Notes: generated by a model from the letters alone, not told the origin. Shown: positions 11,376 to 38,515, counted from the first letter of the stretch. The stretch is 41,530 bases of DNA from Verrucomicrobiota bacterium (GCA_031423695.1 JANPGB010000120.1:1-41530); one strand, 5' to 3'. Translations and numbers: made by a program.

Positions 11376-11387
11376 AAAAGTGCTTTC

Positions 11388-12611
11388 TCAACCGCGACCG
11401 AGGATCTGTTTGATGGTGTTCCCGATGTCCCCCGCCAGCGATTTCCGCCCCGTCCGCTTGCGCTGCTGGTTGGACCCGACCTTCACCAGCCCGATGGCGG
11501 CGGCGAACTCCGGCTGATCCAGCGCGGACTTCAAACCGCTGACGGAATTCGTCTGCCCGATGCTTGCCGGCATCTGCAACACCCGCTCCGCCAGTTGCGC
11601 GATCTGCGGAATCCGCGCCCCGCCGCCGCAGAGAAAAATCCCGGCGCGCAGATAATCCAGCACACAGGCCTGCTCCAGGTCCTGCGCGATGAGCTGGAAA
11701 ATCTCCTCCAGCCGCAGCCCCATGATGCGGCGCAGATTTTCCACGCTCACCGTCTTCTGCGGCAGGCCGAACTCGTTGGGGATCGCGACGGTCGGGCCGG
11801 CGGCGGCCCGACTTGCCAGCGCAGAGCCGTGTTCGCATTTCAACTGCTCGGCCCGGCCCAGCGGAACTTTCAGTCCGTACGCCAGATCGTTGGAAACATG
11901 GTCACCGCCCACCGCCAACACGCCGATGTGCTTGATGACGCCCTTGGAATACACCACGTACTCCGTCGTGCCGCCGCCGATGTCGATCACCAGCGCGCCC
12001 AACTCCTTCTGCTCATTGGTGAGCAGCGCGAGCGACGCGGCGAGACCGTTGAAAACAATTTCGTCCACCTCCAACTGCAAGCCCTTGACCGCGCGCACGG
12101 AATTTTGGAGCCGGTTGAAATTCCCCTGGATCACATGCATGTCCACCTCCACGCGCGAGCCGAGCATCCCGACGGGATTGGGAATGCCGTCCTGGCCGTC
12201 CACCAAAAAATGCTGGCGGACCGCGTGAATGACGTGGTTCTCCGGCGAGCGGTTGATGGCCTTGGCGTTTTTCACCACGTCCTGCACGTCCTCCTCGGAA
12301 ATTTCCCGGTCGGCGGAGACAATCTGGTGTACGCCCCGGTTGTTGCAGCCGCGCACATGCGCGCCGGTCACGCCCAGATAGACGCTGCGGATTTCGACGT
12401 CGGCCATGTGCTCGGCCTCGACAATGGCGTTGCGCACGTCCTCCTCCGCCACCGGCGCGTCGCAGATTTCGCCCTTGCGCACGCCGCGCGAACGGGCCTG
12501 CCCTAGCCCGACGATGTTCAGTTCGCCCTCGGCGTTCATCTCGCCAACGACGGCGCACACTTTCGACGTGCCGATTTCCAGGCCGACGATCACATTCGAC
12601 GAATCAAACAT
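11388..12611 (-). CDS. ftsA: Cell division protein FtsA (alternative start 12626)
   Basis: GLEIGTSKV, DIGGGTT, GGGARI actin-like motifs; C-terminal amphipathic helix. Confidence 0.96.
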   Translation of the reverse strand: MFDSSNVIVGLEIGTSKVCAVVGEMNAEGELNIVGLGQARSRGVRKGEICDAPVAEEDVRNAIVEAEHMADVEIRSVYLGVTGAHVRGCNNRGVHQIVSADREISEEDVQDVVKNAKAINRSPENHVIHAVRQHFLVDGQDGIPNPVGMLGSRVEVDMHVIQGNFNRLQNSVRAVKGLQLEVDEIVFNGLAASLALLTNEQKELGALVIDIGGGTTEYVVYSKGVIKHIGVLAVGGDHVSNDLAYGLKVPLGRAEQLKCEHGSALASRAAAGPTVAIPNEFGLPQKTVSVENLRRIMGLRLEEIFQLIAQDLEQACVLDYLRAGIFLCGGGARIPQIAQLAERVLQMPASIGQTNSVSGLKSALDQPEFAAAIGLVKVGSNQQRKRTGRKSLAGDIGNTIKQILGRG

Positions 12612-12618
12612 TTTTCGA

Positions 12619-13581
12619 TTAAACATTTCTTCTCCTTGCTTTGGCAGGTTTGAGATTTTTGGGAACAACGGGCGCGGCCGTGCCGGCTTCGAGCAGACGC
12701 AGCGGCGTGTAATCGTTCACCGCCAGATCCAGCGTCGCTATGCCCTTGCGCTCCCGCAGGCATTCATCATAGATGCGCCGCCAGCGGGTGAGTTGCCGCT
12801 CGAAATCGTCCGCCGCAAACGTCACTTCACTCCCCTGCGCCGTGGTGACCACGAGCACCTGCGGCGCGCTGACGTCAATCCGCTTCAAATCCACCAGGCC
12901 CGCCATGGGCGACTGCTCGAATTTTTCAATCAGCTTCAAGGCGGACAGCGCCGGGGCGAAATCCAGCTTGCGACCCGTCTGCAACCCGGCGGTGTTGAGG
13001 CCGGCGATCACCGGGTATTGATCCTGCCCCTGCCCGAGCGGCACGGCGCGGTCGCGCGGGTCGAGCGGCTGCAACACAAACCCCTCCGCGTCCAGTTGAA
13101 AAATCTGCTGTTCGATCCCGCCGCCGTCGCGCGGATGCAACACGTTGACCTGGGCCACCGGTTCGCGCTCCGCCACCCGGAGCCGCAAGGTCCCCGGCAG
13201 GATGCGCTCGACTGACACGGCCCGAATCATCGGCACCATTTCCAAGTCATGCTTCACGCGCGCAAGATCCAGCGCGAGCAGGTTCTGCCCCGCCCGGACG
13301 CCGCTCCAGCGCCGCAATTGTTCGGGGGCAATCACCCCGTCGGTCTGCACCTCGATCAATTGGATGGCGAACGACTTGTTGTCGTACACCAGTTGGTTCA
13401 ACGTCCACTCGCCAAGCCGCCATAAAACAAAAAGTCCGAGCAAGGTTCCGCCGATCACGCCAAGCGAAACCACCGCCAGCCGCGTGCGCGCCGCGCGCAC
13501 CACCTTGGAACGCACCTTCACATCCAGCACGCTCTGCCGGTGCCACAACCGCCGGTTTTTATATTTACGTTGGAACCACAT
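12619..13581 (-). CDS. ftsQ: Cell division protein FtsQ/DivIB
   Basis: Single TM, POTRA domain (V.VERILPGTL.L.V.EREPVA), located between ddl and ftsA. Confidence 0.88.
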   Translation of the reverse strand: MWFQRKYKNRRLWHRQSVLDVKVRSKVVRAARTRLAVVSLGVIGGTLLGLFVLWRLGEWTLNQLVYDNKSFAIQLIEVQTDGVIAPEQLRRWSGVRAGQNLLALDLARVKHDLEMVPMIRAVSVERILPGTLRLRVAEREPVAQVNVLHPRDGGGIEQQIFQLDAEGFVLQPLDPRDRAVPLGQGQDQYPVIAGLNTAGLQTGRKLDFAPALSALKLIEKFEQSPMAGLVDLKRIDVSAPQVLVVTTAQGSEVTFAADDFERQLTRWRRIYDECLRERKGIATLDLAVNDYTPLRLLEAGTAAPVVPKNLKPAKARRRNV

Positions 13582-13644: not shown

Positions 13645-14568
13645 TTAATTTTTGACTTTAAATTTTTCATTCCGCCCCAGCGCCAGTTCGATCATCCGCT
13701 GGCAAAGCTGCTCGTAGCTGATCCCCGCCGCCGCCGCCGCTTTCGGCAGCAGGCTCGTCGGCGTCATGCCCGGCAGCGTGTTCACTTCCAGCACCACCGG
13801 CTCGCCGTTCGCCCGCACCATCACATCCACGCGCGAATAATCGCGGCCGCCCACCGCGCGAAACGCCCCCAGCGCTGCCGCCTGAATCCGCGCCGTCGTG
13901 GCGTCATCAAATTCCGCCGGACAAAAATATTCCGTGTTCCCGGGCGTGTACTTGTTGCGGTAATCGTAGCTGCCGGACTTGGGCCGCACCTCGACCACCG
14001 GCAACGCCGCCCCGTCCAAAATGCCCACCGTGGTTTCGCGCCCGACAATTTTTTCTTCAACCAAAAGTTCGGAGCCATGCCGGGAAGCTTCGCGCAGCGC
14101 ATCGCTCCACTCGGCGACGCGCTCGACAAATTGCAGCCCCACGCTCGAACCCTGCCGCACCGGCTTCACCACCAGCGGCGGCTGCCAGCCCATAGGCCAG
14201 GGCGTCTTCTCGGAATCCACCACTAGAAATTTTGCCGTCGGCACGTCGGTTTCAACGCAGCGCTGCTTGGTCAAAACCTTGTCGAACGCAATCCGACTCG
14301 CCTCGGCGTCGCAACCGGTGTAGGGCACACCCAGCTTTTCAAGCTGCTGCTGCACCGTGCCGTCCTCGCCATACGTTCCGTGCAACGCCAGAAAAACCGC
14401 GTCCGTCCCCGGCGGCAGCGTGAATGTGCCGTCCTGCGGATCCACTTCGGTCACCATATGGCCCAGCGACCGCAGCGCCGTCGCCACACCCGCGCCGCTG
14501 TTCAACGACACCTCGCGCTCGGCGCTCGGCCCGCCCAGCATCACCACGATGTTCAGTAGCTTTGACAT
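13645..14568 (-). CDS. ddl: D-alanine--D-alanine ligase
   Basis: GGPSAEREVSL, LHGTYGEDG, KPVRQGSSVG, YDYRNKY, LEVNTLPGMT all present. Confidence 0.97.
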   Translation of the reverse strand: MSKLLNIVVMLGGPSAEREVSLNSGAGVATALRSLGHMVTEVDPQDGTFTLPPGTDAVFLALHGTYGEDGTVQQQLEKLGVPYTGCDAEASRIAFDKVLTKQRCVETDVPTAKFLVVDSEKTPWPMGWQPPLVVKPVRQGSSVGLQFVERVAEWSDALREASRHGSELLVEEKIVGRETTVGILDGAALPVVEVRPKSGSYDYRNKYTPGNTEYFCPAEFDDATTARIQAAALGAFRAVGGRDYSRVDVMVRANGEPVVLEVNTLPGMTPTSLLPKAAAAAGISYEQLCQRMIELALGRNEKFKVKN

Positions 14569-14576
14569 GGTTGCCC

Positions 14577-15527
14577 TCAATCCTCGCCGATAATTTCCAC
14601 TTCCGTATGCAGGTCGATGCCGCGCTCTGCTTTCACCCGCTCCTTCAGAATCTCCATCAACGCAAGGACATCCCGCGCTGTCGCCGCGCCGTCGTTCACA
14701 ATAAAATTTCCGTGCTCCGCCGAAACCACCGCGCCGCCCACGCGCGTGCCCTTCAAGCCCAACTCATCGATCAACCGACCCGCCGAATGTCCCGCCGGAT
14801 TTTTGAACGCACAACCCGCGCTCGACATGGCAGGCTGCGACGCCCAGCGCTTCTTGCTGTAGTCGTTCATGCGCTGCTCGATGGCTTCGCGAGCATCTGG
14901 CCGGCCTTTGAGCACCGCGCCGAGGGCGATGTGGGTTTTACAAGTCGCGCAGCACCGATATTCCACTGCCATTTCCTGCGGTGTCAGTTCACGGACGTTG
15001 CCGTTGAAATCCATCAGTCGCGCCGACTCGACGATGTCGAATGTCGCGCCGCTCATCGCGCCCGCGTTCATCCGCAGCGCGCCGCCCACGCTGCCGGGGA
15101 TGCCTTCCAGAAATTCCAGCCCGGCCAATCCGTGGCGCTTCGCCTCAACGGAGACATGCTTCAACTTCGCGCCGGCTCCGCAGCGCAAGTGTTCCCCATT
15201 GATTGCAACCTGGCTGAACACTGCATGCGCAAGGCAGATCACCACGCCACGAAAACCGCCGTCCCTCACCACTAGATTGGAGCCGCGTCCCAGCACAAAG
15301 AATTTCAGGCCGCAGGTGCCGCAATATTTCAAAACCGCCGCCAGGTCCGCCTCTGAAGCCGGCTCCAGGTAAAGATCTGCCCGGCCGCCCACGCGGAGCG
15401 TCGTGCGCTTCGCCAGCGGTTCGTCACAACGGATCGCCGTCGCGCCCGAGACCAGGCCCGCCAGGGCTTCCGCGTGATTTTTGTCTGCGTGCATCGGCGC
15501 TTCTAAAATGGCGGGTGACGAAGTCAT
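14577..15527 (-). CDS. murB: UDP-N-acetylmuramate dehydrogenase (stand-alone, no MurC moiety)
   Basis: TTLRVGG, GRGSNL, GIPGSVGGALRMNAGA, SAGCAFKNP, HGNFIVN; 316 aa. Confidence 0.96.
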   Translation of the reverse strand: MTSSPAILEAPMHADKNHAEALAGLVSGATAIRCDEPLAKRTTLRVGGRADLYLEPASEADLAAVLKYCGTCGLKFFVLGRGSNLVVRDGGFRGVVICLAHAVFSQVAINGEHLRCGAGAKLKHVSVEAKRHGLAGLEFLEGIPGSVGGALRMNAGAMSGATFDIVESARLMDFNGNVRELTPQEMAVEYRCCATCKTHIALGAVLKGRPDAREAIEQRMNDYSKKRWASQPAMSSAGCAFKNPAGHSAGRLIDELGLKGTRVGGAVVSAEHGNFIVNDGAATARDVLALMEILKERVKAERGIDLHTEVEIIGED

Positions 15528-16717
15528 GCGCCAACGGGCCGCTCACCCGCAAACGGCGCACCGGTCTCCGAACCGGCTCGTTCCGGATCCCGCGCAGGTT
15601 GCCGCCAGTTCGGAAACCGGCGTTCCTCGGCCGCAACTGTCCGCAAAATGATTTCGGCAATTTCTTCCGCCGCCTTCGGGGCGTGCCACTTTGCCAGGGC
15701 GGCCTGCATTTCATCGCGGACGACTGCGTTTGAAATCAATTCCGCAACCATGTTCGCGAGCCGTTCCGGTGTCGCGTCTTTTTGTTCCAGCAACCGTGCC
15801 GCGCCGGTTTCCTCAAAGGCGCGGGCGTTGTAAAACTGATGGTTGTCCATCGCCGCCGGAAACGGCACCAGGACGGCCGGCACGCGCATGGCCGCGAGTT
15901 CCGCCAGCGAGGACGCGCCGGCCCGGCTGATGGCCACGGTGGCCGCACCAAGCGCGACCACCATTTCCGAAAAGAACGGATGCACCACCGCGCGCAGATT
16001 TTTTTCCGCGTAGGCCCGACGGACTCGCTCGGCGTCCGCGGCGCCGGTGAAATGCAGGAACTGCCAGTCGGTTTTCAACAGCGGCAGCGAGTTGACGAGG
16101 AGATTGTTGATGCCGGTCGCGCCCTGACTGCCGCCCACGGCCAGCAGAACGGGCCGCAGCGGATCCAGTCCGAGCGCGGCGCGGCACGCGGCGGCTGCGC
16201 GCGGCTGAAATTCGGGGCGGACGGGAGTGCCGGTCTGGCTGACATGACGGGCGTGGAGCCGTGCGGCGGCCTGCGCAAACCCGACGAACGCTTCCGGCAC
16301 GAAGCGCGACAGCCAGCGGTTGGCGCGGCCGGGGATGGTGTTCGACTCGTGCAGAAAAGTTTTTGCGCCCAGATGCTTCGCCGCGAGCACGGGCGGCGCG
16401 CTGGTAAACCCGCCCATGGCCAGCACGGCTTGCGGCCGGTGTTGTCGAAAATATTTCCGGGCCGCAAAATAAGAACGAATGAAGCCGCGCAGAAAGGCGA
16501 TTTTGTTTCCACCACTCAGACCCACGGCGGGCAGGGTGATGATTTCCATGCCGGAAACCTTTTGCGCGGCCTGCTGGTCCACGTCCTTGGGTGAGACCAG
16601 CAGCGTGACTGCGCAGCCGCGCCGGACGAGTTGTTCCGCCACGGCCAGGCCCGGGAAAAAATGGCCGCCCGTGCCGCCACAGGCGATGGCAATTCTCGTT
16701 GCGGTGTGCGGCGTCAT
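15524..16717 (-). CDS. murG: MurG lipid II GlcNAc transferase with repeat-derived C-terminal tail
   Basis: GGTGGH, HESN, GGSQGA, RAGASSLAE, HQ..NA. Confidence 0.96.
   Translation of the reverse strand: MTPHTATRIAIACGGTGGHFFPGLAVAEQLVRRGCAVTLLVSPKDVDQQAAQKVSGMEIITLPAVGLSGGNKIAFLRGFIRSYFAARKYFRQHRPQAVLAMGGFTSAPPVLAAKHLGAKTFLHESNTIPGRANRWLSRFVPEAFVGFAQAAARLHARHVSQTGTPVRPEFQPRAAAACRAALGLDPLRPVLLAVGGSQGATGINNLLVNSLPLLKTDWQFLHFTGAADAERVRRAYAEKNLRAVVHPFFSEMVVALGAATVAISRAGASSLAELAAMRVPAVLVPFPAAMDNHQFYNARAFEETGAARLLEQKDATPERLANMVAELISNAVVRDEMQAALAKWHAPKAAEEIAEIILRTVAAEERRFPNWRQPARDPERAGSETGAPFAGERPVGA
15555..15626. repeat. Inverted pair of REP-like palindromes inside the murG 3' end
   Basis: ggcgcaccggtctccgaaccggc (15555-15577) and inverted near-copy gccagttcggaaaccggcgttcc (15604-15626); read in frame as ERRFPNW..RAGSETGAP. 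Confidence 0.7.
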
Positions 16718-17859
16718 GCGTTTTGAGGTTCGGCGGAATCAAGACCGGCAGTCAGGCCGTTTTCCAGCGCACGGCCATTCCGCGCGACGTTGAGGAGCAG
16801 CCCGACACAGATGAGCATCGCGAGCAGGTTGGAGCCGCCGTAGCTGATGAACGGCAGCGGGAGCCCTTTGTTCGGCAGCGCGTTGGTGACGACCCCGATG
16901 TTGATCATGGCCTGGAGTCCGATGAGGAAGGTGAGGCCGGCCGCGAGCAACGTGCTGAAAGTGTCGCGCGCGTGGCTGGCAATGTAAACGCCGCAGCCGA
17001 GGATGGCGACAAAGGCTCCGCAGATCAGCAGCGTGGCGATCAGGCCCAATTCCTCTCCGATAATGGCGAGGATGAAATCCGTGTGATGCTCGGGAACCCA
17101 GCCGAGCTTTTGGCGGCCGTTGCCCAAACCCAGCCCGGTCCAACCCCCAGCCCCCAGCGCGAGCCGGGCCTGGTAGGCCTGCAACCCCTTGTCACGCCGC
17201 GTCTCTTCCAGGTGCAGCCACGAATAGACGCGTTCCGAGCGCATCGGGTTGTGATAGATGAAGGCGCTGATGGCGATGAGGCCCGCGATGACGGGCGGCA
17301 AAAAATATTTTAACTGGATGCCGGCGACGAGCAGCATCACGCAGCTCACCGAGGCGAGCAGCAGGGCGTTGCCCACGTCGGGCTCGATGAAGATCAGGCC
17401 GAGCGTCAGGCCGATGAACAAGCCGGGAAAAAGAATCCCGCGTTTCCAGGTGCGCATCTGCCGTTGAAAGTGCTCGCCGTACCACGCGAGCGCCAGAATG
17501 AGCGCGATCTTGGCGAACTCCGAGGGCTGCAGACTGACGCCATGGAAGCTGAACCAGCGGCTGGCTCCGTTGATGCGTTTGCCGATGTGCGGCACGACCA
17601 CGAGCGCCAGCAACACCAAAGTGAAGCCGAGCAGCGGCCAGGCGAATTTCTTGAGCAGCCGACGGTCGAGCAACGCGGCGGTCAGACACAACCCCAGGCC
17701 GAGGGCGCACCAGATCAACTGCATCACCAGGTAATGCGCGCCAATCTCACTGTGCGTGCGGCGGTCCCAGGATTCCATGCTCGAGCTGTAAAGCATCACC
17801 ATGCCCAGCGCGAGGAGGGCGGCGACACAAAACACCAGAACTGTAACGGCCACTTTCAT
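16714..17859 (-). CDS. ftsW: SEDS family peptidoglycan glycosyltransferase FtsW
   Basis: NGASRW, LQPSEFAK, EPD.G, PEHHTDFI..IIGEELG, PNKGLPLPFISYGGS. Confidence 0.96.
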   Translation of the reverse strand: MKVAVTVLVFCVAALLALGMVMLYSSSMESWDRRTHSEIGAHYLVMQLIWCALGLGLCLTAALLDRRLLKKFAWPLLGFTLVLLALVVVPHIGKRINGASRWFSFHGVSLQPSEFAKIALILALAWYGEHFQRQMRTWKRGILFPGLFIGLTLGLIFIEPDVGNALLLASVSCVMLLVAGIQLKYFLPPVIAGLIAISAFIYHNPMRSERVYSWLHLEETRRDKGLQAYQARLALGAGGWTGLGLGNGRQKLGWVPEHHTDFILAIIGEELGLIATLLICGAFVAILGCGVYIASHARDTFSTLLAAGLTFLIGLQAMINIGVVTNALPNKGLPLPFISYGGSNLLAMLICVGLLLNVARNGRALENGLTAGLDSAEPQNA

Positions 17860-17868
17860 GCGCAAACC

Positions 17869-17899
17869 CGGACGCCGGGCCGAGGGCGCCCGGCGTCCG
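17869..17899. repeat. Perfect 12-bp GC-rich hairpin between LysM gene and ftsW
   Basis: cggacgccgggc-cgagggc-gcccggcgtccg; no clear long U-tract. Confidence 0.75.
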
Positions 17900-17909
17900 C
17901 GACCAACAC

Positions 17910-18653
17910 TTACAAAGGTTTCGGAGTGGAGGTTGCCGGCGCGGGCGCGGTCGTTTCAGGAACCACCGGAGCCGTCACCGGGACGATTGTCTTGGCCGGA
18001 ATTTTCAACTTGTCCCCGACTTTGATCTTGTCGGTGGTGAGACTGTTGGCGGAGCGCAGCGCCTTGACGGACACGCCATAGTGCTTGGCGATGGTCGTCA
18101 GAGTATCACCGGACTTGACCTTGTGAATCTGCTCGCCGGTCGCGGCGGAATCTGCCGGGGCGCTGACGGAAGAACCTGCCGTCGGGGTGGCGGTCGCTGC
18201 CGGGAGATGAAGGGGCTGGCCGATTTTCAGTTTCTTAGGATCCACCCCGGGGTTGGCATCTTGCACCGACTTGGTGCTGACGCCATGATCCTTGGCGATT
18301 TTTTCAAAGGTGTCTCCTTTGACAACGACATACTCCTGGCTGGGCGCGACGACCGGCACCACGGGTTCCGGCGCCGGTGGAACGTAGGCGGTGACGTTGG
18401 TGCCCGGAGCGTTGGTGCTGACGGCTGAAACCAGGTTGGTGTCAAACGTCGGCATGGTCATCGTGTTGGTCTCGGCTGGCGGGACTTCCGGCTCGCTCGG
18501 TTTGCGGCAGCCAAAGCCGATGATCAGCAAAGCCATCAGCGCGATGAAATTGACGGCGAACACCAGCGTGACCGCCGTGCGCACGCGGACACGGCTTTGA
18601 TTTTTCTGCTCCACCGCGGGGCTTTCGGGATTCAATGGACTCGGATTATTCAT
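17910..18653 (-). CDS. Membrane-anchored double-LysM protein (alternative start 18716)
   Basis: TM segment ending GFGC; two LysM domains (YVVVKGDT..KIAK.HGVS..; HKVKSGDTL..IAKHYGVS..L..AN); Pro/Thr-rich linkers. Confidence 0.9.
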   Translation of the reverse strand: MNNPSPLNPESPAVEQKNQSRVRVRTAVTLVFAVNFIALMALLIIGFGCRKPSEPEVPPAETNTMTMPTFDTNLVSAVSTNAPGTNVTAYVPPAPEPVVPVVAPSQEYVVVKGDTFEKIAKDHGVSTKSVQDANPGVDPKKLKIGQPLHLPAATATPTAGSSVSAPADSAATGEQIHKVKSGDTLTTIAKHYGVSVKALRSANSLTTDKIKVGDKLKIPAKTIVPVTAPVVPETTAPAPATSTPKPL

Positions 18654-18838
18654 TTGATTCTGACGCGCAACGGCGTCCTTTCTGTGAGGTTGATTTAATT
18701 GGTTCGTTCGCTCCATGGTTTTCCCTCAAAAAACCACGAGGCGATAAATTGTTTTGTTACGGCGTTTTCGTTTCTGTTTTTGGACCGGTTCAAACCGCCA
18801 CCGCTTTCACCATGCATCTTGGGGCAGGCCGGCAGCCA

Positions 18839-19050
18839 ACCCCAACTAATTGATTTCACGCATCGGCAAATTTTTCCACCACGTTGCTGAAAGATTTGAA
18901 ATTGCTCAAAGCTTGAATCAACTGGTGAAAGCAAAAACGAACGCCGACCACCGCAGAATATTTCACTGCGACAGTTGTTTCTAACAACGAACGCGCGGCC
19001 GTGCAAGCGGTAAAACGACCGATTGCCGCGCTATTTTTTTTGGCGTCAAA
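18839..19050 (-). pseudogene. murD: Frameshifted 3' relic of murD
   Basis: Frame A KKNSAAIGRFTACTAARSLLETT..VVG, shift near 18940, frame B LLSPVDSSFEQFQIFQQRGGKICRCVKSISWG matches the MurD C-terminal LLSPACSSFDQF..Y..RG motif; sits in the canonical murD slot after mraY; AT-richer than neighbours. Confidence 0.8.
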
Positions 19051-19061
19051 TTCTTGCCTTG

Positions 19062-19085
19062 TCACGTTTCACCTTTCACGTTTCA
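19062..19085. repeat. 7-bp tandem repeat at the murD deletion junction
   Basis: tcacgtt-tcacctt-tcacgtt-tca. Confidence 0.6.
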
Positions 19086-19095
19086 GGATCGGGCC

Positions 19096-20280
19096 TCATC
19101 GAATCTTCAGTGTGCTCAACGCCACCACCGCACAAAGAATGCACAGGATGTAAAACCGCATCACCACCTGCGATTCATACCATCCCTGCTTCTCAAAATG
19201 GTGATGGATGGGGGCCATCAGAAACAGCCGCCGCCCCGTTCCGCTGCGCCGCCGCGTCCATTTGAACCAGCCCTTCTGCAAAATCACCGAGCCGGCCTCC
19301 ATCACGAACACCCCGCCGGCGATCACCAGCACCAGCGGTTGATGAATCAGCACCGCGGTGATGCCCAGCGCCCCGCCGAGCGCGAGCGAACCGGTGTCGC
19401 CCATGAACATCTGCGCCGGATGACAGTTGAACCACAGGAAGCCGAGACCCGCGCCGATCAGCGCCGCGCAAAATACCGTCAGCTCCCCCGCCCCGCTCAC
19501 GTAGGGAATCTGCAGATACGTCGCCGCCTTCACGTTGCCCGCCAGATACGTCAGCACCAGGAAAACAAACGAGACGATCAGCGTGCAGCCAATCGCGAGG
19601 CCGTCCAGACCGTCCGTCAAATTCACCGCGTTGGAACTGCCCACGATGGCGAGCATCGTCAGCAGCACGCCCAGACCGCCGCCGACGGCGATCGGATATT
19701 TGTAGAATGGCACCATCAACACGCTGACCAGATTGCTGACGAGCGCGTGTTTGAATTCCGGCAGATGCAGTTCGCTGCGCACCGGCAGCATCCACAAATA
19801 CAGCGCCACAAAAATCGCCAGCGAAAACTGCACCCAAAGCTTCACCCGTGGCGGCGTGCCGAGCCCGTTTTGCTGGGTGATCTTGGCGTAATCGTCATAG
19901 AAGCCCAGCGCCGCCAGCACGACCACCGAAAGCAGTGACAGTTGAATCAGCGTGTTCCACTGCGCCCACAGCAGCGTCGAGGCGTTCAGCGTCAGGATGA
20001 TCAAAATGCCCCCCATCGTCGGCGTGCCCTTCTTGCTGAGCAGGCGCGTCTTGAGGTCACCGGTTTGCTCGGCCACGTCCGAATACTCCTGCCCAAACTT
20101 CAGCTGTTTCAGCCAGCCGATCACCTTCGGTCCCAGCCAGAGACTCAGCAGCAGGGCCGTGACCGCCGCGCCTGCGCTGCGTACGGTGATGTACGTGAAC
20201 AGCCGCAGCGGCGACAACCGGCCGGCCCAATCCGTGCCCGCCGCCGACTTCAACAACCATTGGCTCAGGTAATAAAACAT
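19096..20280 (-). CDS. mraY: Phospho-N-acetylmuramoyl-pentapeptide transferase
   Basis: KKGTPTMGG, GFYDDY, NAVNLTDGLDGLA, FMGDTGSLALG, APIHHHFE. Confidence 0.97.
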   Translation of the reverse strand: MFYYLSQWLLKSAAGTDWAGRLSPLRLFTYITVRSAGAAVTALLLSLWLGPKVIGWLKQLKFGQEYSDVAEQTGDLKTRLLSKKGTPTMGGILIILTLNASTLLWAQWNTLIQLSLLSVVVLAALGFYDDYAKITQQNGLGTPPRVKLWVQFSLAIFVALYLWMLPVRSELHLPEFKHALVSNLVSVLMVPFYKYPIAVGGGLGVLLTMLAIVGSSNAVNLTDGLDGLAIGCTLIVSFVFLVLTYLAGNVKAATYLQIPYVSGAGELTVFCAALIGAGLGFLWFNCHPAQMFMGDTGSLALGGALGITAVLIHQPLVLVIAGGVFVMEAGSVILQKGWFKWTRRRSGTGRRLFLMAPIHHHFEKQGWYESQVVMRFYILCILCAVVALSTLKIR

Positions 20281-21675
20281 TCAGCTCTTTCTGCCGGCCG
20301 CGTCGCGCATCGCCTCCGCGATCCGCTCCAGTCGCGCGGACCGCGACGCCTTCAGCAAAACCAGGTCGCCGGCCCTCACAAAATTTTTCAGCCCCGGCAC
20401 CGCCAAGGCCACGTCGGAAAATTCCAGCACGCGATTCAACCCCGCCGCCTTCGCCCCGCGCGCCAGCAGCGGCGCCATCTTGCCCACGGCGATCAATTGG
20501 CCCACACCCAGCTCCGCCGCACGGCCCCCGACTTCCTCATGGGCCGCCTCGCTGCCCCCGCCCAATTCCGCCATGTCGCCCAACACCGCGATGCGCCGGC
20601 CCTTGCAGGGCAGATCCATCAACGTCTGCAGGGCGGCCAGCATGGAGTCGGCGTTGGCGTTGTAGCAGTCGTCCAAGACCTGCACGCCGCCGGCTTCCCA
20701 AAGCTGACCGCGCATTTTCGGTGGCTCGCAGGCTTCCAGACCGCGACGAATTTCCGCCGCGCTCAAACCCAGCTCCGCGCCAAGCGCAATCGCAAACAAC
20801 GCGTTCACCGCCTGATGCCGGCCGAGCAGGCGCAGCTTATATTCGCCGCATAAATCCGGCAGCGGCCCGTCCACGCGAAAAACGAGTTCGTGTTTTTCGT
20901 AACGAACTGCACCCGCGCGCCAGTCGTTTGATTTGGCAAAGCCCACACGCACGACCCCCGCCCGCGCGCGTTTGGCAATCGAGGACGTCCACTCGCTGTC
21001 GCCGTTGAGAAAAAGTTTTCCGTCCGCCGGCAGCCGTTCTGCCAGTGCGCCCTCCTCGTGCGCGACGCCGGCGAGGTCCAAAAAAAACTCCAGATGCTCG
21101 CGCCCGATGCTGGTGAGCACGCCGTATTGCGGCTGAATCATGTCCACCAGCGGGGCCAGCTCGCCGGGATGGTTGGTGCCGACTTCCAGCACGGCGGCGG
21201 CGTGCGTTTTCTCCAGGCGCAGCAAGGTGGTCGGCACCCCGATGTCGTTGTTGAAACTCGCGTCGCTGGACAGTGTGCAAAATTTCTGCCGCAGCACCGA
21301 GGCGATCAAATCCTTCGTCGTGGTTTTCCCATTCGAGCCGCCGACGGCGATGACGGGCAGGGTAAATTGTTTTCGATACGCGGCCGCCAGCTGTCCCAGG
21401 GCCGCGCGCGGTTCGTCCACGACAATCGCCGCGCAGTCCGCCAATTTTTCCGGCTGCCGGGCGCGTGCCATGACAATTGCACCCGCGTGCTTGCCCGCGA
21501 CTTCGTTGAGAAAATCGTGGCCGTCGAACCGGTCGCCTTTGATCGCCAGAAACAAATCCCCGGGCGCGAGCTGCCGGGAATCCGTGCAGACGCGCCGCAC
21601 CATCGCCTGCGATTCGCCGCGCAGGATTTTTCCACCCACGGCGTCCGCGACAAATTTCAGGGTGCGCGCTTCCAT
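20281..21675 (-). CDS. murF: UDP-MurNAc-tripeptide--D-Ala-D-Ala ligase
   Basis: TDSR, GSNGKTTTK, NNDIGVP, E.GTNHPGE, DDCYNANADSM, LGDMAELG, LKASR. Confidence 0.95.
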   Translation of the reverse strand: MEARTLKFVADAVGGKILRGESQAMVRRVCTDSRQLAPGDLFLAIKGDRFDGHDFLNEVAGKHAGAIVMARARQPEKLADCAAIVVDEPRAALGQLAAAYRKQFTLPVIAVGGSNGKTTTKDLIASVLRQKFCTLSSDASFNNDIGVPTTLLRLEKTHAAAVLEVGTNHPGELAPLVDMIQPQYGVLTSIGREHLEFFLDLAGVAHEEGALAERLPADGKLFLNGDSEWTSSIAKRARAGVVRVGFAKSNDWRAGAVRYEKHELVFRVDGPLPDLCGEYKLRLLGRHQAVNALFAIALGAELGLSAAEIRRGLEACEPPKMRGQLWEAGGVQVLDDCYNANADSMLAALQTLMDLPCKGRRIAVLGDMAELGGGSEAAHEEVGGRAAELGVGQLIAVGKMAPLLARGAKAAGLNRVLEFSDVALAVPGLKNFVRAGDLVLLKASRSARLERIAEAMRDAAGRKS

Positions 21676-22449
21676 TCAGTTCAACGTAAAGGTGGTGGTG
21701 ACGACGGCCATGATGGTTTTCTCCACCGAGGTTGTGTCGTTCATGCCCTCGCCGCTGGTCTGCGAATTGTTCAACGGCGTGATCTGGAAGATTCCCATTT
21801 CGGCGTCGTGCAGGTTCGCGATGCCGCGCCCGCCCTGCGTGGCGATCTGTTCGGCGCGGGTCCGCGCGTCCTTGGTCGCCTCGCCCAGCATCTCGATCTT
21901 GGCCTCGCCGGCCTTGGTGTAGATGAAGCGCGGCGAATCCGTGGTGAACAAGACGCCCTGCTCCACCAGTGCCGTGGAGTCGCTGTCCAACTGCACGATG
22001 CGATCCACGTCTGCTGAGCGAACTTCGACCGACTGCCGCAATTTGTAGCCCACGTTCCGTTCTTCCGCGCCGGTAACCTTCCAGTTACCCGACTCACTAT
22101 TCGTCACCAGGGTTTGGAACGTGGCGCGCTTCTCCTCAATGACGATGGGCGTGAACGCATGGTTCGTCATGCCAGCATGGTTCAGAAAGTCATCCACACG
22201 AACCCGGTCTTCCTTCAACTTCCGCTGCGCCTCCAGCAGCGTGGCGGCCTCGGTGGTGAAGCTGCCGCTCCAGATCGCAAGGTCGGACCTGATGTTTTTG
22301 CGCGCCGAACCTTTGACGGTGATGAACTGGGAGTTCTTGATTTTCACCCACGCCGTTGTGCCGAGCATGGCCGAAAAAACCAGGCCGGCGGCCAGGAAAA
22401 GTCCCGCCAGCATCCCGAACAGATGGGGCCGGGAAAGATTGGCATTCAC
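21676..22449 (-). CDS. SIMPL (DUF541) domain protein occupying the murE position
   Basis: N-terminal TM; ITVKGSA....SDLAIW; K.EML.EATKDA..RAEQIA; GIFQIT; EK....VV..TF.L. Confidence 0.85.
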   Translation of the reverse strand: MNANLSRPHLFGMLAGLFLAAGLVFSAMLGTTAWVKIKNSQFITVKGSARKNIRSDLAIWSGSFTTEAATLLEAQRKLKEDRVRVDDFLNHAGMTNHAFTPIVIEEKRATFQTLVTNSESGNWKVTGAEERNVGYKLRQSVEVRSADVDRIVQLDSDSTALVEQGVLFTTDSPRFIYTKAGEAKIEMLGEATKDARTRAEQIATQGGRGIANLHDAEMGIFQITPLNNSQTSGEGMNDTTSVEKTIMAVVTTTFTLN

Positions 22450-24344
22450 GGATTGGTTCCTCCGGTGCGGACCACCCGCAGGTCAGCCGTCTGCGCCAGC
22501 GTGTCGGATTTGGCCGGCTGATTGTCCGGCTGGATGTTCAAGTAGCTCGCCGCGCGCTCGGCAATCTGCTTGAAGGTCGGCGCGGCCACCAGGCCTCCGT
22601 AATAACCTTCCTTGGGCTCATCCAAAACCACGGAGATGCACAACTCGGGATTATCCGCCGGGAAAAAGCCTATGAACGAAGAGACATATTTGCCGTGGAC
22701 GTACTGCCCCCCTTCAACCTTTTGCGCGGTGCCGGTTTTTCCCGCCACGGTATAATTCGTCATCGCCGCCTTCACCGCCGTGCCTCCGGTCAAAACCACG
22801 GTCTTTAGCGCCTCGACCATTTGCCTGGCCGTGGCTTCACTCACCACCTGGCGAACGAGTTGCGGTTCGTAACGGGCGACCGTGCCACCGCCGGCGTCCT
22901 CGAGATGATCCACGAGCATCGGCCGCATGAGCCGGCCGTTGTTGGCGATGGCGCACATGGCCATCACCATCTGCAACCGCGTAACCGCGATGCCATGGCC
23001 CATGGGAATCTGCGCAACGGAGACTTTGCTCCAGTTTTTCACCGGGTGGACAATGCCGGGAACTTCGCCGGGCAACGGCAGTCCCGTGCGCGCGCCAAAA
23101 CCGTAGCTGGTGATGTATTCAAAGAGCCGGTCCGGCCCGAGTTTGATGCCGATTTTCGCCGCACCAATGTTTGAGGATTTGGTGATGATGCCTTTGACGG
23201 TAAGATTGTCCTCGGGCTCGTGATCATGGAGAGTGCGACCCGCAAACGCAAAATGCCCGTGCTCGCAATAGAACACATCATTGAGACTGACGACTTTTTC
23301 GTTCAACGCGCCGGAGACCGGCACAATTTTGAATGTCGATCCTGGCTCCACGATGTCGGAGATGACGCGGTTGCGCCGGGCATCCGCCGGAGCGGCGCCG
23401 GGATTGTTGGGGTTGTAATCCGGCAGCGTCGCCATGGCGAGAATCTCCCCGGTGCGCGGGCGCGCGACGATGGCACTGATGCTGATGGGAGTATGCTTCT
23501 CCATCGCGTCGGCCAGGGCCGACTCGACGATGTGCTGGACGTAGGCATCAATCGTCAGCACCACGTTCAAGCCGTCCCGCGCATCCACGTCCTGCTCGCG
23601 CAGCGTCACGAGTTCGCGACCCCGGTTGTCCGTCTCCGTACGCCGCCAGCCGCGCACGCCGCTCAGCTTGGAATTGAGAAACAATTCCACGCCGTCCTTG
23701 CCGGTGATCTCGGTGATCGAGCCTTTGTCGGCGAGCTCGCGTTCCTCGCTGGTGGCGTAACCCAGCACATGCGCCGCCAGATTCTGGCCGGGATAAATGC
23801 GCAGCTGGTCTTTTTCCACAAAAATGGATTTCTGCCGCAGGGCGCTGTAGAAGGATCGTTCCCGCAACGGCAGTTTTTTCTCGTCCAGACCGAAATTGAG
23901 ATTGGTCATGGCGGCTTGAATGGCCTGCCAGGTGTCCACGGAAACCTTGCGCTGGAGACGCGCGTATTGGTTCGTGAACGATTCTCCTTTGTCATTTTGG
24001 CGGACCTTGGGGGTGAGCCGCTGGGTCAGTTCCGACTCCGACAGTTTCAGCAGGGGCGCCAGGACCCGCACGACTTCGCCCCGCCGCGCCCCCAGCAACG
24101 TCGGGTCGGCGCAGACGGTCAGCACCGGCACGCTGGTCGCGAGGATGTTTCCCTTCACATCCAGAATGTCTCCGCGCCGGGGCTCCAGGAAAAATTTCCG
24201 CTGCGTGTTCTGCTGCGCCTTCCGTCCCAGCTCCTCGTGGCGCAACACCTGCACGTCCGCCAGATGGTAACCCAGCCCCGCAAACGCACAGGCCAGCAGT
24301 CCGGCGAGCAGCCACAGTCTTTGGTATTGCAGTCGTTTGGCCAT
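22446..24344 (-). CDS. ftsI: Class B penicillin-binding protein FtsI/PBP3
   Basis: RG.I.D, G.DGVE; SxxK (EPGSTFK), SxN (KSSNIG) and KTG (GKTGTAQK) intact. Confidence 0.95.
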   Translation of the reverse strand: MAKRLQYQRLWLLAGLLACAFAGLGYHLADVQVLRHEELGRKAQQNTQRKFFLEPRRGDILDVKGNILATSVPVLTVCADPTLLGARRGEVVRVLAPLLKLSESELTQRLTPKVRQNDKGESFTNQYARLQRKVSVDTWQAIQAAMTNLNFGLDEKKLPLRERSFYSALRQKSIFVEKDQLRIYPGQNLAAHVLGYATSEERELADKGSITEITGKDGVELFLNSKLSGVRGWRRTETDNRGRELVTLREQDVDARDGLNVVLTIDAYVQHIVESALADAMEKHTPISISAIVARPRTGEILAMATLPDYNPNNPGAAPADARRNRVISDIVEPGSTFKIVPVSGALNEKVVSLNDVFYCEHGHFAFAGRTLHDHEPEDNLTVKGIITKSSNIGAAKIGIKLGPDRLFEYITSYGFGARTGLPLPGEVPGIVHPVKNWSKVSVAQIPMGHGIAVTRLQMVMAMCAIANNGRLMRPMLVDHLEDAGGGTVARYEPQLVRQVVSEATARQMVEALKTVVLTGGTAVKAAMTNYTVAGKTGTAQKVEGGQYVHGKYVSSFIGFFPADNPELCISVVLDEPKEGYYGGLVAAPTFKQIAERAASYLNIQPDNQPAKSDTLAQTADLRVVRTGGTNP

Positions 24345-24513: not shown

Positions 24514-24891
24514 TCAGCGCCGCGCCTGCATTCCGGCCCGTTGCGCGTACTGCCGGTCGGCCTGGGCCGACGGTTCCAGGACCGGCTCGCTCAACCGCCA
24601 GAACTGCGCGGAGGACGGCGGCACGAGGCCGAGGCCCAATTCCTTGACGCGCATCTCCAAAAACTGCGGCGACCGCATCAGCCCCAGCTGCCGCTTCAAT
24701 TTTTCGTTTTGCCCCTGCAGATCGAGGACGCGCTTTTCGTTGCGGGAAATCTGACGGCCCAGTTCACCGATCCGGCCCTTCTGCCAGACGTAGCCCACGC
24801 CCGCGCCGCCGAACAGCGAGCAGAGCAGGACGACCCAGATCACCGGGCCGAACCGGATCGCCGCCGACTGATTTTTTCGATTCTTGGCCAT
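24514..24891 (-). CDS. ftsL: FtsL-like cell division protein
   Basis: Basic N-terminus, one TM, coiled coil, SP..LE....ELGL.P; located between rsmH and ftsI. Confidence 0.8.
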   Translation of the reverse strand: MAKNRKNQSAAIRFGPVIWVVLLCSLFGGAGVGYVWQKGRIGELGRQISRNEKRVLDLQGQNEKLKRQLGLMRSPQFLEMRVKELGLGLVPPSSAQFWRLSEPVLEPSAQADRQYAQRAGMQARR

Positions 24892-25824
24892 CTAAATTTT
24901 CTCCATCACCCGCAGTTGCGCACTGCGGCTGCGGGGGTTTTGCGCCAGTTCCACTTCCCCCGGCAGCACCGCTTTCCGAGTCACCAACATCAGCTCCGGC
25001 GTGCGCGGCACCCGCAGCTCCGGGATGTCCACTTCACCGGCGAACGAATAATCCCGCGCCCGCTCGCGACCGAAATTCTTCACCACCCGGTCTTCCAGCG
25101 AGTGAAACGTGATCACCGCCAGCCGTCCGCCGGGCTTCAATATCTTCAGCGCCCCGGCCAGGCCGCGCTCCAGCGAGCCGATCTCGTCGTTCACTGCGAT
25201 ACGCAAGGCCTGGAACACCTTCGTCGCCGGATGCGCTTTTTTCCCGTGACGCGGCGAAATTCGTTCGAGCAGCTCCGCCAGTTGCCGCGTCGTGGTAAAG
25301 CGCCGCAGCTCCCGGTCATGCACCATCGCCCGCGCCAGCCGCCGGGAATCCCGTTCGCCGCCGTATTCCCAAAAAATCTTCGCCAACTCTTCCGGCCCCG
25401 CCGTGTTCACCAGGTCCGCCGCCGAGAGCGCCTGCCGCGAATCCATCCGCATGTCGAGCGGGCCGTCGCTCTGAAAACTAAAGCCGCGTTCCGCCATGTC
25501 GAGCTGCGGCGAACTCACGCCCAGATCCAGCAGAACCCCGTCACAGCTTCCTATGGGCACCCACTCCGGGAGTTCCGAAAAATTCCCGCGCCGGATCTCG
25601 AACCGGCCCGCAAACTCGGCCAGCCTGGCACCCGCCGCCTCAACGGCGATGCCATCGCGATCGCACCCCGACAACCACCCAGTCGGCGAACTCGCGGCTA
25701 GTATCGCGCTCGCGTGGCCAGCTCCACCCAGCGTCCCGTCGGCGTACCGCCCGTCCGCCCTCGGCCGGAGCGCCGCCAGCACTTCCGCCAGCAGCACCGG
25801 TTTGTGGGCGAAGGAGGGTGGCAC
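24892..25824 (-). CDS. rsmH: 16S rRNA m4C1402 methyltransferase
   Basis: HKPVLL.E, DGTLGGAGH, DLGVSSPQLD..ERGFSF, FQALRIAVN.E, FHSLEDR, NPRSRSA. Confidence 0.97.
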   Translation of the reverse strand: MPPSFAHKPVLLAEVLAALRPRADGRYADGTLGGAGHASAILAASSPTGWLSGCDRDGIAVEAAGARLAEFAGRFEIRRGNFSELPEWVPIGSCDGVLLDLGVSSPQLDMAERGFSFQSDGPLDMRMDSRQALSAADLVNTAGPEELAKIFWEYGGERDSRRLARAMVHDRELRRFTTTRQLAELLERISPRHGKKAHPATKVFQALRIAVNDEIGSLERGLAGALKILKPGGRLAVITFHSLEDRVVKNFGRERARDYSFAGEVDIPELRVPRTPELMLVTRKAVLPGEVELAQNPRSRSAQLRVMEKI

Positions 25825-25838
25825 GCATCAGTTCTCCC

Positions 25839-26453
25839 TCACGCCGCCGACCCCTGCGAGACGGCCAGTTCGCTGCGCGTCTGCGTGTGCAACGCCGGTT
25901 TGAAATTCGTCTCCTGGCTGAATGTCCGGGCCGGCACCACTTCCACGTCGGCGTCATTCAAATCGTTGCGCACGACCTTGATGTTTTGCAGCGATAGCTC
26001 GCCCTGCACCACCGGCTTGTCAAAGCGTGGAATGGCCGGCTTGGCAGCGGATTTTTGTCCGCCCGACCACCGGGCCGGACTCAGTTTCTCCAGCATCACC
26101 CCGGCCCAGTCCAGAAAGATTTCCCACCGCTTCGGCTTGGCATTTTCCGGGGCGGCGCTGTGACGTGCGGCGACAAACGGCAGCCGTCTCGTCTCCTTCA
26201 TTTTCGCCGACAACTCCGGCAGGCGCTGGGTCTCCTTCAGGTTGGCCGCCGGAATGCGGGCAGCCCGCACCAGCGGCCTGGACAGCGGCTCCGTCACGGC
26301 CGGAGCCGGCTCTTTTTTCGCCGGCGGCGTGAACGGATTTTTGGATGAACCAAATTTCGGCAGATAATTCTTGCCGGGCATGTGGTAGCGGCTCGTGGAA
26401 TTTTTCAAGTCCACCAAAGTTTTCCCGTTGGTCAGTAATTGCATCAGGCTCAT
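25839..26453 (-). CDS. Hypothetical protein embedded between mraZ and rsmH
   Basis: 204-aa co-directional ORF with 5- and 14-nt gaps to neighbours; motifs LPKFGS.KNPF and QGELSL.NIKVVRNDL.DAD.E.V. Confidence 0.75.
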   Translation of the reverse strand: MSLMQLLTNGKTLVDLKNSTSRYHMPGKNYLPKFGSSKNPFTPPAKKEPAPAVTEPLSRPLVRAARIPAANLKETQRLPELSAKMKETRRLPFVAARHSAAPENAKPKRWEIFLDWAGVMLEKLSPARWSGGQKSAAKPAIPRFDKPVVQGELSLQNIKVVRNDLNDADVEVVPARTFSQETNFKPALHTQTRSELAVSQGSAA

Positions 26454-26458
26454 GGTTA

Positions 26459-26929
26459 TTACTCCATCATTTTGAACGCTTCCGTCGCCATCACAGCGTC
26501 GGTCGCGCGAACTTTTTCATAACGGTCCGGATTCCAAATCTCGAACCGGTCCAGCAAACCCACCAGCATGGCTTCTTCGTCTATTTTCAGGCCGGCCGCG
26601 GTTGCCATGGCCTCGGGCAAACAAATGCGCCCCCCCTTGTCGAGCGCCACCTGCACCGACTCACTGCCGATAAATCTTTTCAACACCACCTTGTTCGGAT
26701 CACTGTTTGGCATCGCGTCAATGTCCCGCATCAACTCCGCCATCTCCTGCGGCGGCAGCACCCGCAGACACGGTCCCTCTTTCGATTTTGGCCACAGGAT
26801 CAAAGTGAACTCCACCCCCGCTTCGGAAGGCCGCCACTTGGAAGGGATCTGCAAACGACGCGCTCCATCAACCCCGTGCCGGTAGGAGGAGTTGTAAATC
26901 GTCGTTTCGATGTTCTTCAGCGTTTCCAT
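26459..26929 (-). CDS. mraZ: Division/cell wall cluster repressor MraZ
   Basis: VD..RRLQIPSKWR; LDK.GRI.LP; VGLLDRFEIW. Confidence 0.95.
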   Translation of the reverse strand: METLKNIETTIYNSSYRHGVDGARRLQIPSKWRPSEAGVEFTLILWPKSKEGPCLRVLPPQEMAELMRDIDAMPNSDPNKVVLKRFIGSESVQVALDKGGRICLPEAMATAAGLKIDEEAMLVGLLDRFEIWNPDRYEKVRATDAVMATEAFKMME

Positions 26930-29030: not shown

Positions 29031-29061
29031 ACCGGCTGCCGCGCGGCCGCAAACAACACCG

Positions 29062-36223: not shown

Positions 36224-36719
36224 AAATGAGCTTAGGGAAAAAAGTCGCTTACGCGTGAGCCACAGGCGGCAAGTGGTGGTGAGCTGCATCGCCTGCGAGC
36301 AAGACGCTTGGAAACGAAGCCACGCGTTGTTTGAAAAATGGACGCGCTGACGCGGGTGTCCTTGGCCGTTTCAATCTGTTTATCACGGGTCGAGCAGCGC
36401 AGCTTGTGTGCCAGTGTGGCGATACTGCGCAAAACTTGACCTGTGACGGTGATTTCCCATGAGCTGTGGGAGTTGGGGGGCGAATAAAACCACACCGGGG
36501 CCTTAAAGTTTACCGGAGTATGCGGTTGGCAGGCTTATTTGAGTCGGACTCTGAGGGCCAGATTGAGACAGGCGGTGTCAAAATTCCTGCCGTTTGAATT
36601 CAACGCCGGGCTTTGCTGCTGGCGGTGCGTCCGGTCCTCGTCGAACACCCCACGTGCGCAGGGTCGGGCTGTTCGACGAGGTAGCCCGAGGGGAAATCAT
36701 GCGTCACGCCGATGGCTTC

Positions 36720-38450: not shown

Positions 38451-38515
38451 GGTGTATGCAATATTTTTGAGAACCAATTAATTCAGTGACGGTTTCGACT
38501 AATTTCCCCTCCTCC

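Follow-up and report, generated by a model that had tools for sequence, protein, structure and literature searches.

Introduction

MurC, MurD and MurE are, by textbook account, essential to wall-bearing bacteria, and the murein peptide ligase Mpl is dispensable. Mpl belongs to the recycling route described for Gram-negative bacteria such as E. coli and Pseudomonas, which also involves AmpG or MppA-Opp, AmpD and LdcA and in which a preformed tri-, tetra- or pentapeptide is placed on UDP-MurNAc, followed by the action of MurF (PMC3060825, PMC3173086). The reported rates of Mpl are 260 per min for the meso-diaminopimelate (mDAP) tripeptide and about 5-6 per min for the tetra- and pentapeptide; for PaMpl, rates of 0.7 per min with L-Ala and of 1.4 per min with L-Ala-D-Glu are reported, as is the complementation of a murC(ts) mutant by mpl in multicopy (PMC3060825). 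E. coli is described as growing on exogenous murein tripeptide as a source of diaminopimelate and as secreting tripeptide during growth (PMC3173086). The subject of the present work is a division and cell wall (dcw) gene cluster from the verrucomicrobial order Limisphaerales in which the genes for MurC, MurD and MurE are missing and the steps before and after them are retained. It lies on a contig of 41,530 nucleotides (JANPGB010000120.1, here C120), which is the whole stretch of DNA analysed and is referred to below as the window. The contig is part of a metagenome-assembled genome (MAG) of 5.37 Mb in 688 contigs, which is 91% complete and 6.9% contaminated. G, C and L numbers denote genomes, contigs and loci, respectively.

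Bacteria with only part of the precursor pathway have been described before. Tannerella forsythia builds a wall but is reported to lack MurA and MurB, which serve the sugar part of the precursor, to keep the peptide ligases, and to need peptidoglycan fragments from its neighbours (PMC7670621, PMC5388701). Chlamydiae, Wolbachia and other intracellular bacteria have lost parts of the pathway and are described as retaining lipid II synthesis (PMC5814848). Within the Verrucomicrobiota, a MurB/C fusion is reported from Verrucomicrobium spinosum (PMC4803751).

A dcw Cluster without murC, murD and murE

The cluster extends from 10.1 to 26.9 kb of the window and runs on the minus strand throughout. 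Its genes come in the order mraZ, an open reading frame (ORF) of 204 aa, rsmH, an ftsL-like ORF, ftsI, a SIMPL/DUF541 gene, murF and mraY, followed by a 379-bp spacer with a murD remnant and then by a LysM gene, ftsW, murG, murB, ddl, ftsQ, ftsA and ftsZ. Three slots are empty, namely that of murE after ftsI, that of murD after mraY and that of murC between murG and murB. A preliminary description of the window had reported a dcw cluster devoid of exactly these three genes, and this has been borne out and is not an artefact. As it had also stated, ftsI (22446..24344) is followed not by murE but by the SIMPL gene (21676..22449; PF04402, 78 bits), with which it overlaps by 4 nt, and murG (15524..16717) runs with a 4-nt overlap straight into a stand-alone murB (14577..15527), with no murC between them. 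The tight coupling that it noted among the retained genes is equally real: 4-nt overlaps also join ftsW to murG and murB to ddl, and SIMPL/murF and murF/mraY abut directly.

The retained wall genes look sound. MurF (20281..21675; TIGR01143, 387 bits, cut-off 288.6), MurB (NF010480, 337 bits, cut-off 259) and the D-Ala-D-Ala ligase Ddl (13645..14580; NF002378, 339 bits, cut-off 243) all score above curated NCBIfam cut-offs, and full-length Pfam matches are given by MraY (19096..20280; Glycos_transf_4 with MraY_sig1), MurG (the N- and C-terminal domains of Glyco_transf_28), FtsW (16714..17865; FTSW_RODA_SPOVE, 317 bits) and FtsI, or PBP3 (Transpeptidase and PBP_dimer). The preliminary description had credited all seven proteins with intact catalytic motifs. 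These were read directly in FtsI (STFK, SSN, KTG) and in MurF (P-loop GSNGKT); for MurB, Ddl, MraY, MurG and FtsW the evidence is the model match. The GC content at third codon positions (GC3) of the cluster genes lies between 0.72 and 0.83.

The lost ligases do not turn up elsewhere. Pfam Mur_ligase_M matches three proteins in the whole genome, which are MurF, Mpl (465 aa, on C119) and FolC (on C307). No protein in the genome scores above the cut-offs of TIGR01082 (MurC), TIGR01087 (MurD) or TIGR01085 (MurE), the best scores being 307 bits (Mpl itself), 76.6 and 63.5, respectively. A six-frame search of the genome with hidden Markov models (HMMs) built from the MurC, MurD and MurE of relatives returned only MurF, Mpl, FolC and a 13-bit murD remnant. 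Judged by these models, murF is the sole de novo Mur ligase gene remaining in the genome. Relocation of the genes, which the preliminary description had taken as the null hypothesis, was tested by HMM searches of this and of sister genomes and is rejected, as murC, murD and murE were not found: murD and murE are missing from all five genomes of the genus, none of which shows a MurC. Among five related genomes with long contigs, four have three Mur-ligase matches each, one of them on a contig of 4.64 Mb, and the fifth has the same three kinds, with its murF read in three frames. The wider genome search that had been proposed found murA, mpl and opp-like genes and did not find murC, murD, murE, murI or ampG.

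Assembly error at the junctions has likewise been rejected. The gene order is identical in three independent assemblies of the genus, and both the murG/murB and the SIMPL/ftsI junction are bridged by Logan contigs from four runs of two studies. Further stretches are covered in study P1, namely LysM-remnant (X1, X4), remnant-mraY (X1) and murF/SIMPL (X1). No indels are listed in the Logan contigs, although the sample that matches best may be the one from which the genome came. No RNA sample is listed as containing the stretch, which speaks neither for nor against expression. The idea that an incomplete MAG conceals the genes at another place, or that the junctions are misassembled, draws on the completeness, contamination and contig number given above and on murA, which is present in two pieces at two contig ends (G000:C115:11-844 and G000:C301:7711-7998) and so displays the fragmentation of the MAG. 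However, the same state is met across the genus and in the genomes reached via long contigs, remnants are present in the emptied slots, contigs from runs of two studies span the junctions, and a survey of 401 genomes of the order, all with a completeness of 90% or more, failed to find MurE in 279 of them. An artefact can hardly be the explanation.

The Emptied Slots and Their Neighbours

The preliminary description had placed a frameshifted murD relic after mraY. What is actually there is the 379-bp spacer, in which about 30 codons from the end of murD (3' side, ~18845..18934) survive and are non-coding by composition. The remnant matches positions 414-440 of TIGR01087 (16 bits, E 0.014) and positions 429-458 of the order-specific MurD model built from relatives (13 bits). 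Clearer murD remnants occupy the same slot in G015 (110 bits), G008 (65 bits) and G014 (34 bits). The ORF around the remnant has a GC3 of 0.46, compared with the 0.72-0.83 of the cluster genes. This ORF (18695-19006 (-) in the window; 12533-12865 in L110 and 12832-13272 in L112) has a protein identity of 72-76% between species of the genus, and it may hold, in place of a gene, a conserved element of a regulatory or spacer kind.

Beside the remnant lies the gene for a 268-aa protein with two LysM stretches (17910..18716). In all 32 mapped loci that extend over this part, some of them from genomes with an intact murD, a LysM gene has ftsW on one side and murD, or the slot that murD has left, on the other, and it is therefore an ancestral member of the dcw cluster of this order. 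The two-LysM-domain protein is a fixed member of the cluster, found in the same slot in L109-L148. The thought that the LysM ORF might be a murD relic was rejected, since it is an intact gene in all 32 loci and also occurs next to intact murD.

The SIMPL gene, whose product has an N-terminal hydrophobic segment, directly precedes murF in 10 of the 35 mapped loci, with or without murE (the window, L110, L111, L112, L116, L126, L128, L140, L143 and L147). It lies between murE and murF in the MurE-positive genomes G022 and G029 and beside a degenerate murE in G011, and it is absent from nine mapped MurE-less genomes (G001, G008, G013, G014, G015, G020, G024, G025 and G030). A role as a substitute for MurE was considered and rejected on account of this coexistence and this absence. 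From its distribution, the SIMPL gene is best described as an unrelated insertion in a subset of the order, and on the same kind of sequence comparison neither SIMPL nor LysM replaces the lost ligases.

Spread and Order of the Losses

In the survey of the order, MurE is present in 122 of the 401 genomes, in 117 of 384 high-quality genomes and in 60 of 149 genera. A sample of the class gave MurE in 208 of 210 genomes from other orders and in 12 of 41 from Limisphaerales (both from per-family tallies), and the trait is therefore a property of the order. Loss of MurE covers about 70% of the sampled species, and the MurE-less state, which is found in 89 of the 149 sampled genera, must consequently be old and stable.

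The dcw cluster was mapped in 34 relatives, giving 35 loci with the window. In the full state the order is rsmH, ftsL-like, ftsI, murE, murF, mraY, murD, LysM, ftsW, murG, murC(-murB), ddl, ftsQ, ftsA and ftsZ. The murC and murB parts form one frame in G006, G009 and G012 and are separate genes in G010 and G023; the fused frames encode 828-904 aa with MurC at the N-terminus (L135 4196-6907, L136 13549-16059, L138 12879-15362). Loss lineages have murB in its old place and lack the murC part.

All three ligases were tabulated in 31 relatives, of which 10 have C, D and E and 13 have none. D and E without C occur in two (G007 and G018), and D alone in five (G005, G016 and G028, plus the degenerate G024 and G025); in the remaining genome, which is 75% complete, E is present and the contig ends before the murD slot. 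In no case was murC found without murD and murE, either in these 31 genomes or in the 35 that include the four long-contig ones. Emptied slots hold relics of murE in G011 and G016 and of murD in G008, G014, G015 and the window. The scores on the MurD model fall to 140-382 bits after the loss of murC, compared with 373-407 bits in full genomes.

A tree of the 35 genomes was made from eight dcw proteins by a quick method, with support from the Shimodaira-Hasegawa-like approximate likelihood ratio test (SH-aLRT) only. It places the window genome in a clade of 15 (support 99), all of which lack murC and murE and of which only G028 has murD. The minimum number of state changes is five for murC, four for murE and four for murD; the losses of murD probably exceed four, because regain in the same slot is unlikely. 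The nested states show repeated decay, in which C is lost, then E and then D. The preliminary description had spoken of three independent losses. The losses are indeed repeated, but they are not private to this genome, being lineage-wide and ordered from murC through murE to murD. Once murC is gone, MurD and MurE would be left without a substrate and decay, and the order of loss therefore fits the salvage of a preformed peptide. The gene content, the phyletic pattern and the decay series are all matters of direct observation.

Mpl as the Probable Remaining Entry Point

The genome does encode an Mpl-type ligase, one of the possibilities that the preliminary description had raised. The C119 protein, which lies outside the window, scores 478.3 bits on TIGR01081 (cut-off 388.7) and 307.3 bits on the MurC model, below the cut-off of 335.1 for the latter. 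Among solved structures it matches best the Psychrobacter Mpl 3hn7 (PaMpl, 347 bits), and MurC chains reach at most 200 bits. The motif (S/T)AFFDKRSK is reported to be absent from other Mur ligases, as is a list of residues in the peptide domain (PMC3060825). The protein carries this Mpl-only motif as TAFFDKRSK and, when aligned with 3hn7, keeps RR, F-G-H-H (with Ala changed to Gly), EPRSNT and SNG. By all sequence tests applied, it is a bona fide Mpl.

Mpl is a nearly constant possession of the order. It was found in 30 of 31 relatives and, in a survey of the 301 genomes of the order set with numbers up to G313, in 285, made up of 169 of 179 MurE-less and 116 of 122 MurE-positive genomes; in at least two of the other 16, the gene is split at a contig end. 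[S/T/C]AFFDKRSK is present in 31 of 32 Mpls (TAFFDKRSK in 30, SAFFDKRSK in G010), G011 being the exception. F-[A/G]-H-H is found in all 32 and EPRSNT in 25, with all seven exceptions in murC-less genomes. An in-frame TAG that had been reported within the Mpl of G012 is not visible in the tblastn alignment. In a comparison of nine wall proteins, Mpl comes out as the best conserved, with a median identity of 0.74-0.75, as against 0.53-0.72 for the others. This conservation is equal in full and loss lineages, so that Mpl seems to have been heavily used before the losses began. A conserved mpl operon was looked for and rejected: among 80 related loci, mpl alone is common with the contig on which it lies here.

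The biosynthetic genes for MurC, MurD and MurE are thus absent, and the salvage enzyme Mpl and the downstream steps are present. It appears that peptidoglycan is probably still made and that the first three residues of its stem are no longer built. The reading that we lean towards, with somewhat better than even confidence, is an obligate, Mpl-dependent salvage of murein peptide. In such a scheme, MurA and MurB would make UDP-MurNAc de novo, and Mpl would ligate a preformed murein peptide onto it in a single step. LdcA would trim murein tetrapeptide to the tripeptide that Mpl prefers. Alr, Ddl and MurF would then add D-Ala-D-Ala, restoring the pentapeptide, and MraY, MurG, FtsW and FtsI would complete the wall through ordinary membrane steps. 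Recycling of the cell's own wall cannot pay for net growth, and the peptide must therefore come from outside, likely from neighbouring bacteria that turn over their walls or die, to be brought in by an importer. The use of external murein tripeptide by E. coli serves as a precedent. That Mpl is the only entry point, that the source is exogenous and that an importer exists is what we infer.

Supply of D-Glutamate and Murein Peptide

Two further families bear on this scheme. The counts that follow are raw and uncorrected for phylogeny, and their cross-tabulation over the 401 genomes assumes that the same genomes underlie the MurE, MurI and LdcA counts, for which the per-family denominators are identical. 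Glutamate racemase (MurI, TIGR00067) was found in 1 of 279 MurE-less genomes and in 56 of 122 MurE-positive ones. The own genome has no member of the Asp/Glu racemase family, the best match to PF01177 being 11 bits. A D-amino-acid transaminase (Dat) was considered as a source of D-glutamate (D-Glu) and dropped, since the two class-IV aminotransferases of the genome, an IlvE and a PabC-like protein, both fall below the Dat cut-off. Alr, which is needed for D-Ala-D-Ala synthesis, is present.

LdcA of the S66 type was found in 137 of 279 MurE-less and in 13 of 122 MurE-positive genomes, which corresponds to an odds ratio of 8. The window carries an ldcA-like gene for an LD-carboxypeptidase at 28975..30015 on the plus strand, 4.6 kb from ftsI. 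Both S66 domains are present in its product (Peptidase_S66, PF02016, 143 bits; S66C, PF17676, 134 bits). On the NCBIfam model for muramoyltetrapeptide carboxypeptidase, the sole family matched, it scores 224 bits, below the cut-off of 378. Among solved structures, 6uuk, a muramoyltetrapeptide carboxypeptidase, comes nearest (179 bits), and S66 proteins of the MccF type score lower. The alignment with 6uuk keeps the SD, ED and GH positions, which may be those of the Ser-Glu-His catalytic triad.

Three proteins of the genome are candidates for the import of the peptide: on C72 an OppA-like ABC binding protein, on C363 another binding protein of cluster C, and on C280 a peptide symporter of the POT family. 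An Amidase_2 protein on C535 (74 bits) reaches 47 bits on the AmpD model, which has a cut-off of 143. Among the relatives, an AmpG-like carrier of the major facilitator superfamily (MFS) is found only in MurC-less genomes (7 of 21, compared with 0 of 10), and in all its forms it stays under the TIGR00901 cut-off. The long forms of 754-770 aa (L133 1465-3726 (-), L134 1459-3768 (-)) match TIGR00901 in two pieces with a gap between them, and there is also a form of 472 aa (L132 1453-2868 (-)). The carrier of the relatives is an MFS protein with a long insert. It was dropped as the importer of the window's genome, where it was not found.

Weighing the Explanations

Of the three options that the preliminary description had offered, ligation of a tripeptide by an Mpl-type enzyme is supported by the presence of Mpl, by the enrichment of LdcA and by the joint loss of MurI, and a non-canonical stem and the loss of peptidoglycan are less well supported. 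Several observations nevertheless weigh against obligate salvage. No dedicated importer was found, the candidates being generic rather than specific; AmpG gave no TIGR00901 match at E <= 1e-5 and no BLAST match with the AmpG-like proteins of relatives in this genome, which is 91% complete. About half of the MurE-less genomes have an S66 LdcA and the rest do not. No match to MurI was found in 66 of the 122 MurE-positive genomes, which means that some source of D-Glu escapes such searches and weakens the argument from D-Glu. An intact murD persists in G028, G005 and G016, where MurC and MurE are missing, which would be strange for a gene without a use. A test for tighter constraint on Mpl in the loss lineages found none (distance ratio 0.66 in loss and 0.64 in full lineages), and no conserved salvage genes lie beside mpl in the 80 related loci. 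Finally, these are free-living organisms of many habitats, with genomes of 3-9 Mb, for which an obligate need of a single peptide is a strong claim. It is because of the importer, the gaps in LdcA and MurI, the lingering murD and a case made from genes only that salvage is favoured no more firmly than stated above.

Some of the same observations would be expected if the peptide were made de novo by enzymes other than Mur ligases, such as ATP-grasp or other ligases with a source of D-Glu, and attached by Mpl, in which case there would be no auxotrophy. Large genomes of free-living bacteria from many habitats, the 66 MurE-positive genomes that need a further D-Glu source, the MurE-less half without LdcA and the failure to find a dedicated importer would all be in keeping with this. 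However, no candidate enzyme was found, in a search that did not include a genome-wide scan for co-gained genes. The genome has just three genes with the Mur-ligase fold, it shows neither an Asp/Glu racemase nor a Dat above cut-off, and mpl has no conserved neighbours able to encode such enzymes, so that a de novo route of this kind is considered unlikely. A more specific form of the idea, that the Limisphaerales without MurC, MurD and MurE are not scavengers at all but have a second, independent route to the stem that makes or epimerises its own D-Glu and hands its product to Mpl, is thought quite unlikely.

Could Mpl itself have changed? If its substrate range had widened or shifted, for example to L-Ala, a dipeptide or another peptide, MurF would be adding D-Ala-D-Ala to a stem that is shortened or non-canonical. 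The activity of PaMpl on L-Ala and L-Ala-D-Glu and the complementation of murC(ts) by multicopy mpl are reported precedents (PMC3060825). In G007 and G018, where murC is missing but murD and murE are present, such an activity would be required if the two remaining genes are in use. Without murD and murE, on the other hand, nothing would extend a single L-Ala. The scanned motifs of the peptide domain are much alike in loss and full genomes, the genome's own MurF is an ordinary full-length MurF, and the enrichment of LdcA points to the canonical tetrapeptide as the substrate. A changed Mpl is accordingly an unlikely explanation. Still less can be said for an early stage of peptidoglycan loss, with the remaining genes on their way out. 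The remnants and the degenerate copies of murD and murE do record an ongoing decay, but of one part of the pathway. MurF, MraY, MurG, MurB, Ddl, FtsW and FtsI are intact, coupled and conserved in 22 of 22 murE-less loci from many families, the retained genes have the high GC3 typical of coding sequence, and the spread over 89 genera speaks for an old and stable state rather than a transient one; wall loss is very improbable.

Other Genes of the Window

The division genes at the downstream end of the cluster are ftsQ (12619..13581; POTRA_1 and FtsQ_DivIB_C), ftsA (11388..12668; FtsA and SHS2_FTSA) and ftsZ (10089..11387; Tubulin and FtsZ_C), all with Pfam matches. At the upstream end are mraZ (26459..26929; PF02381) and rsmH, also called mraW (24892..25824; PF01795, 344 bits). 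The small ftsL-like ORF at 24514..24891 has no Pfam match and is named by its position only, its place being conserved in relatives. Between mraZ and rsmH is the 204-aa ORF (25839..26453), which has no Pfam match and a coding-like GC3 of 0.77; the interval is an unusual site for an extra gene. Outside the cluster, an ORF of 1224 aa without a Pfam match (32615-36289 (-)) adjoins sulfatase genes at 37002-38477 (-) and 38985-40412 (-).

Comparison with Known Systems

The roles of the essential and the dispensable enzymes appear to be reversed over most of an abundant order, for the greater part uncultured, that lives in soil, peat and freshwater. If salvage is the right explanation, murein tripeptide would be a shared community resource that sustains a large free-living clade, Mpl would be an essential enzyme in nature, and the order would present a large-scale loss of a costly function that neighbours supply. 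The addition of murein tripeptide or of a peptidoglycan digest would then be a cheap test of the resistance of these bacteria to cultivation, and probes based on the tripeptide would be expected to label them selectively. If salvage is wrong, an undescribed route to the stem peptide exists. Among titles and the openings of abstracts, no published account was found of Limisphaerales or Pedosphaerales without MurC, MurD and MurE, or of Mpl as a sole route.

Chlamydiae and Wolbachia resemble the present case in that part of the pathway is lost while lipid II synthesis is retained, but their genomes are small and host-bound, which is not so here. To our knowledge, the combination of lost MurC, MurD and MurE with a retained Mpl is not known from obligate intracellular bacteria. 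Tannerella forsythia, as described, is the closest analogue in logic, a wall-builder with an incomplete precursor pathway that needs its neighbours' fragments, and in terms of genes it is the mirror image: there the sugar steps are lost and the peptide ligases kept, here the sugar steps are kept and the peptide ligases lost. T. forsythia is also a single host-associated species, whereas the state described here extends over most of a free-living order. The MurB/C fusion reported from Verrucomicrobium spinosum is like the murC-murB frames of G006, G009 and G012, of which the window has lost the murC half.

In its parts, the proposed scheme is that of Gram-negative recycling, with which it shares Mpl and LdcA and the placing of a preformed peptide on UDP-MurNAc ahead of MurF. 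It differs in that AmpG was not found here and no binding protein of the MppA type has been established. The two also differ in standing: the recycling route is described as a dispensable side route beside the essential MurC, MurD and MurE (PMC3060825), and here it would be the sole route. What is new, it appears, is that a known salvage enzyme would be the only way in for the stem peptide in most members of an abundant free-living order.

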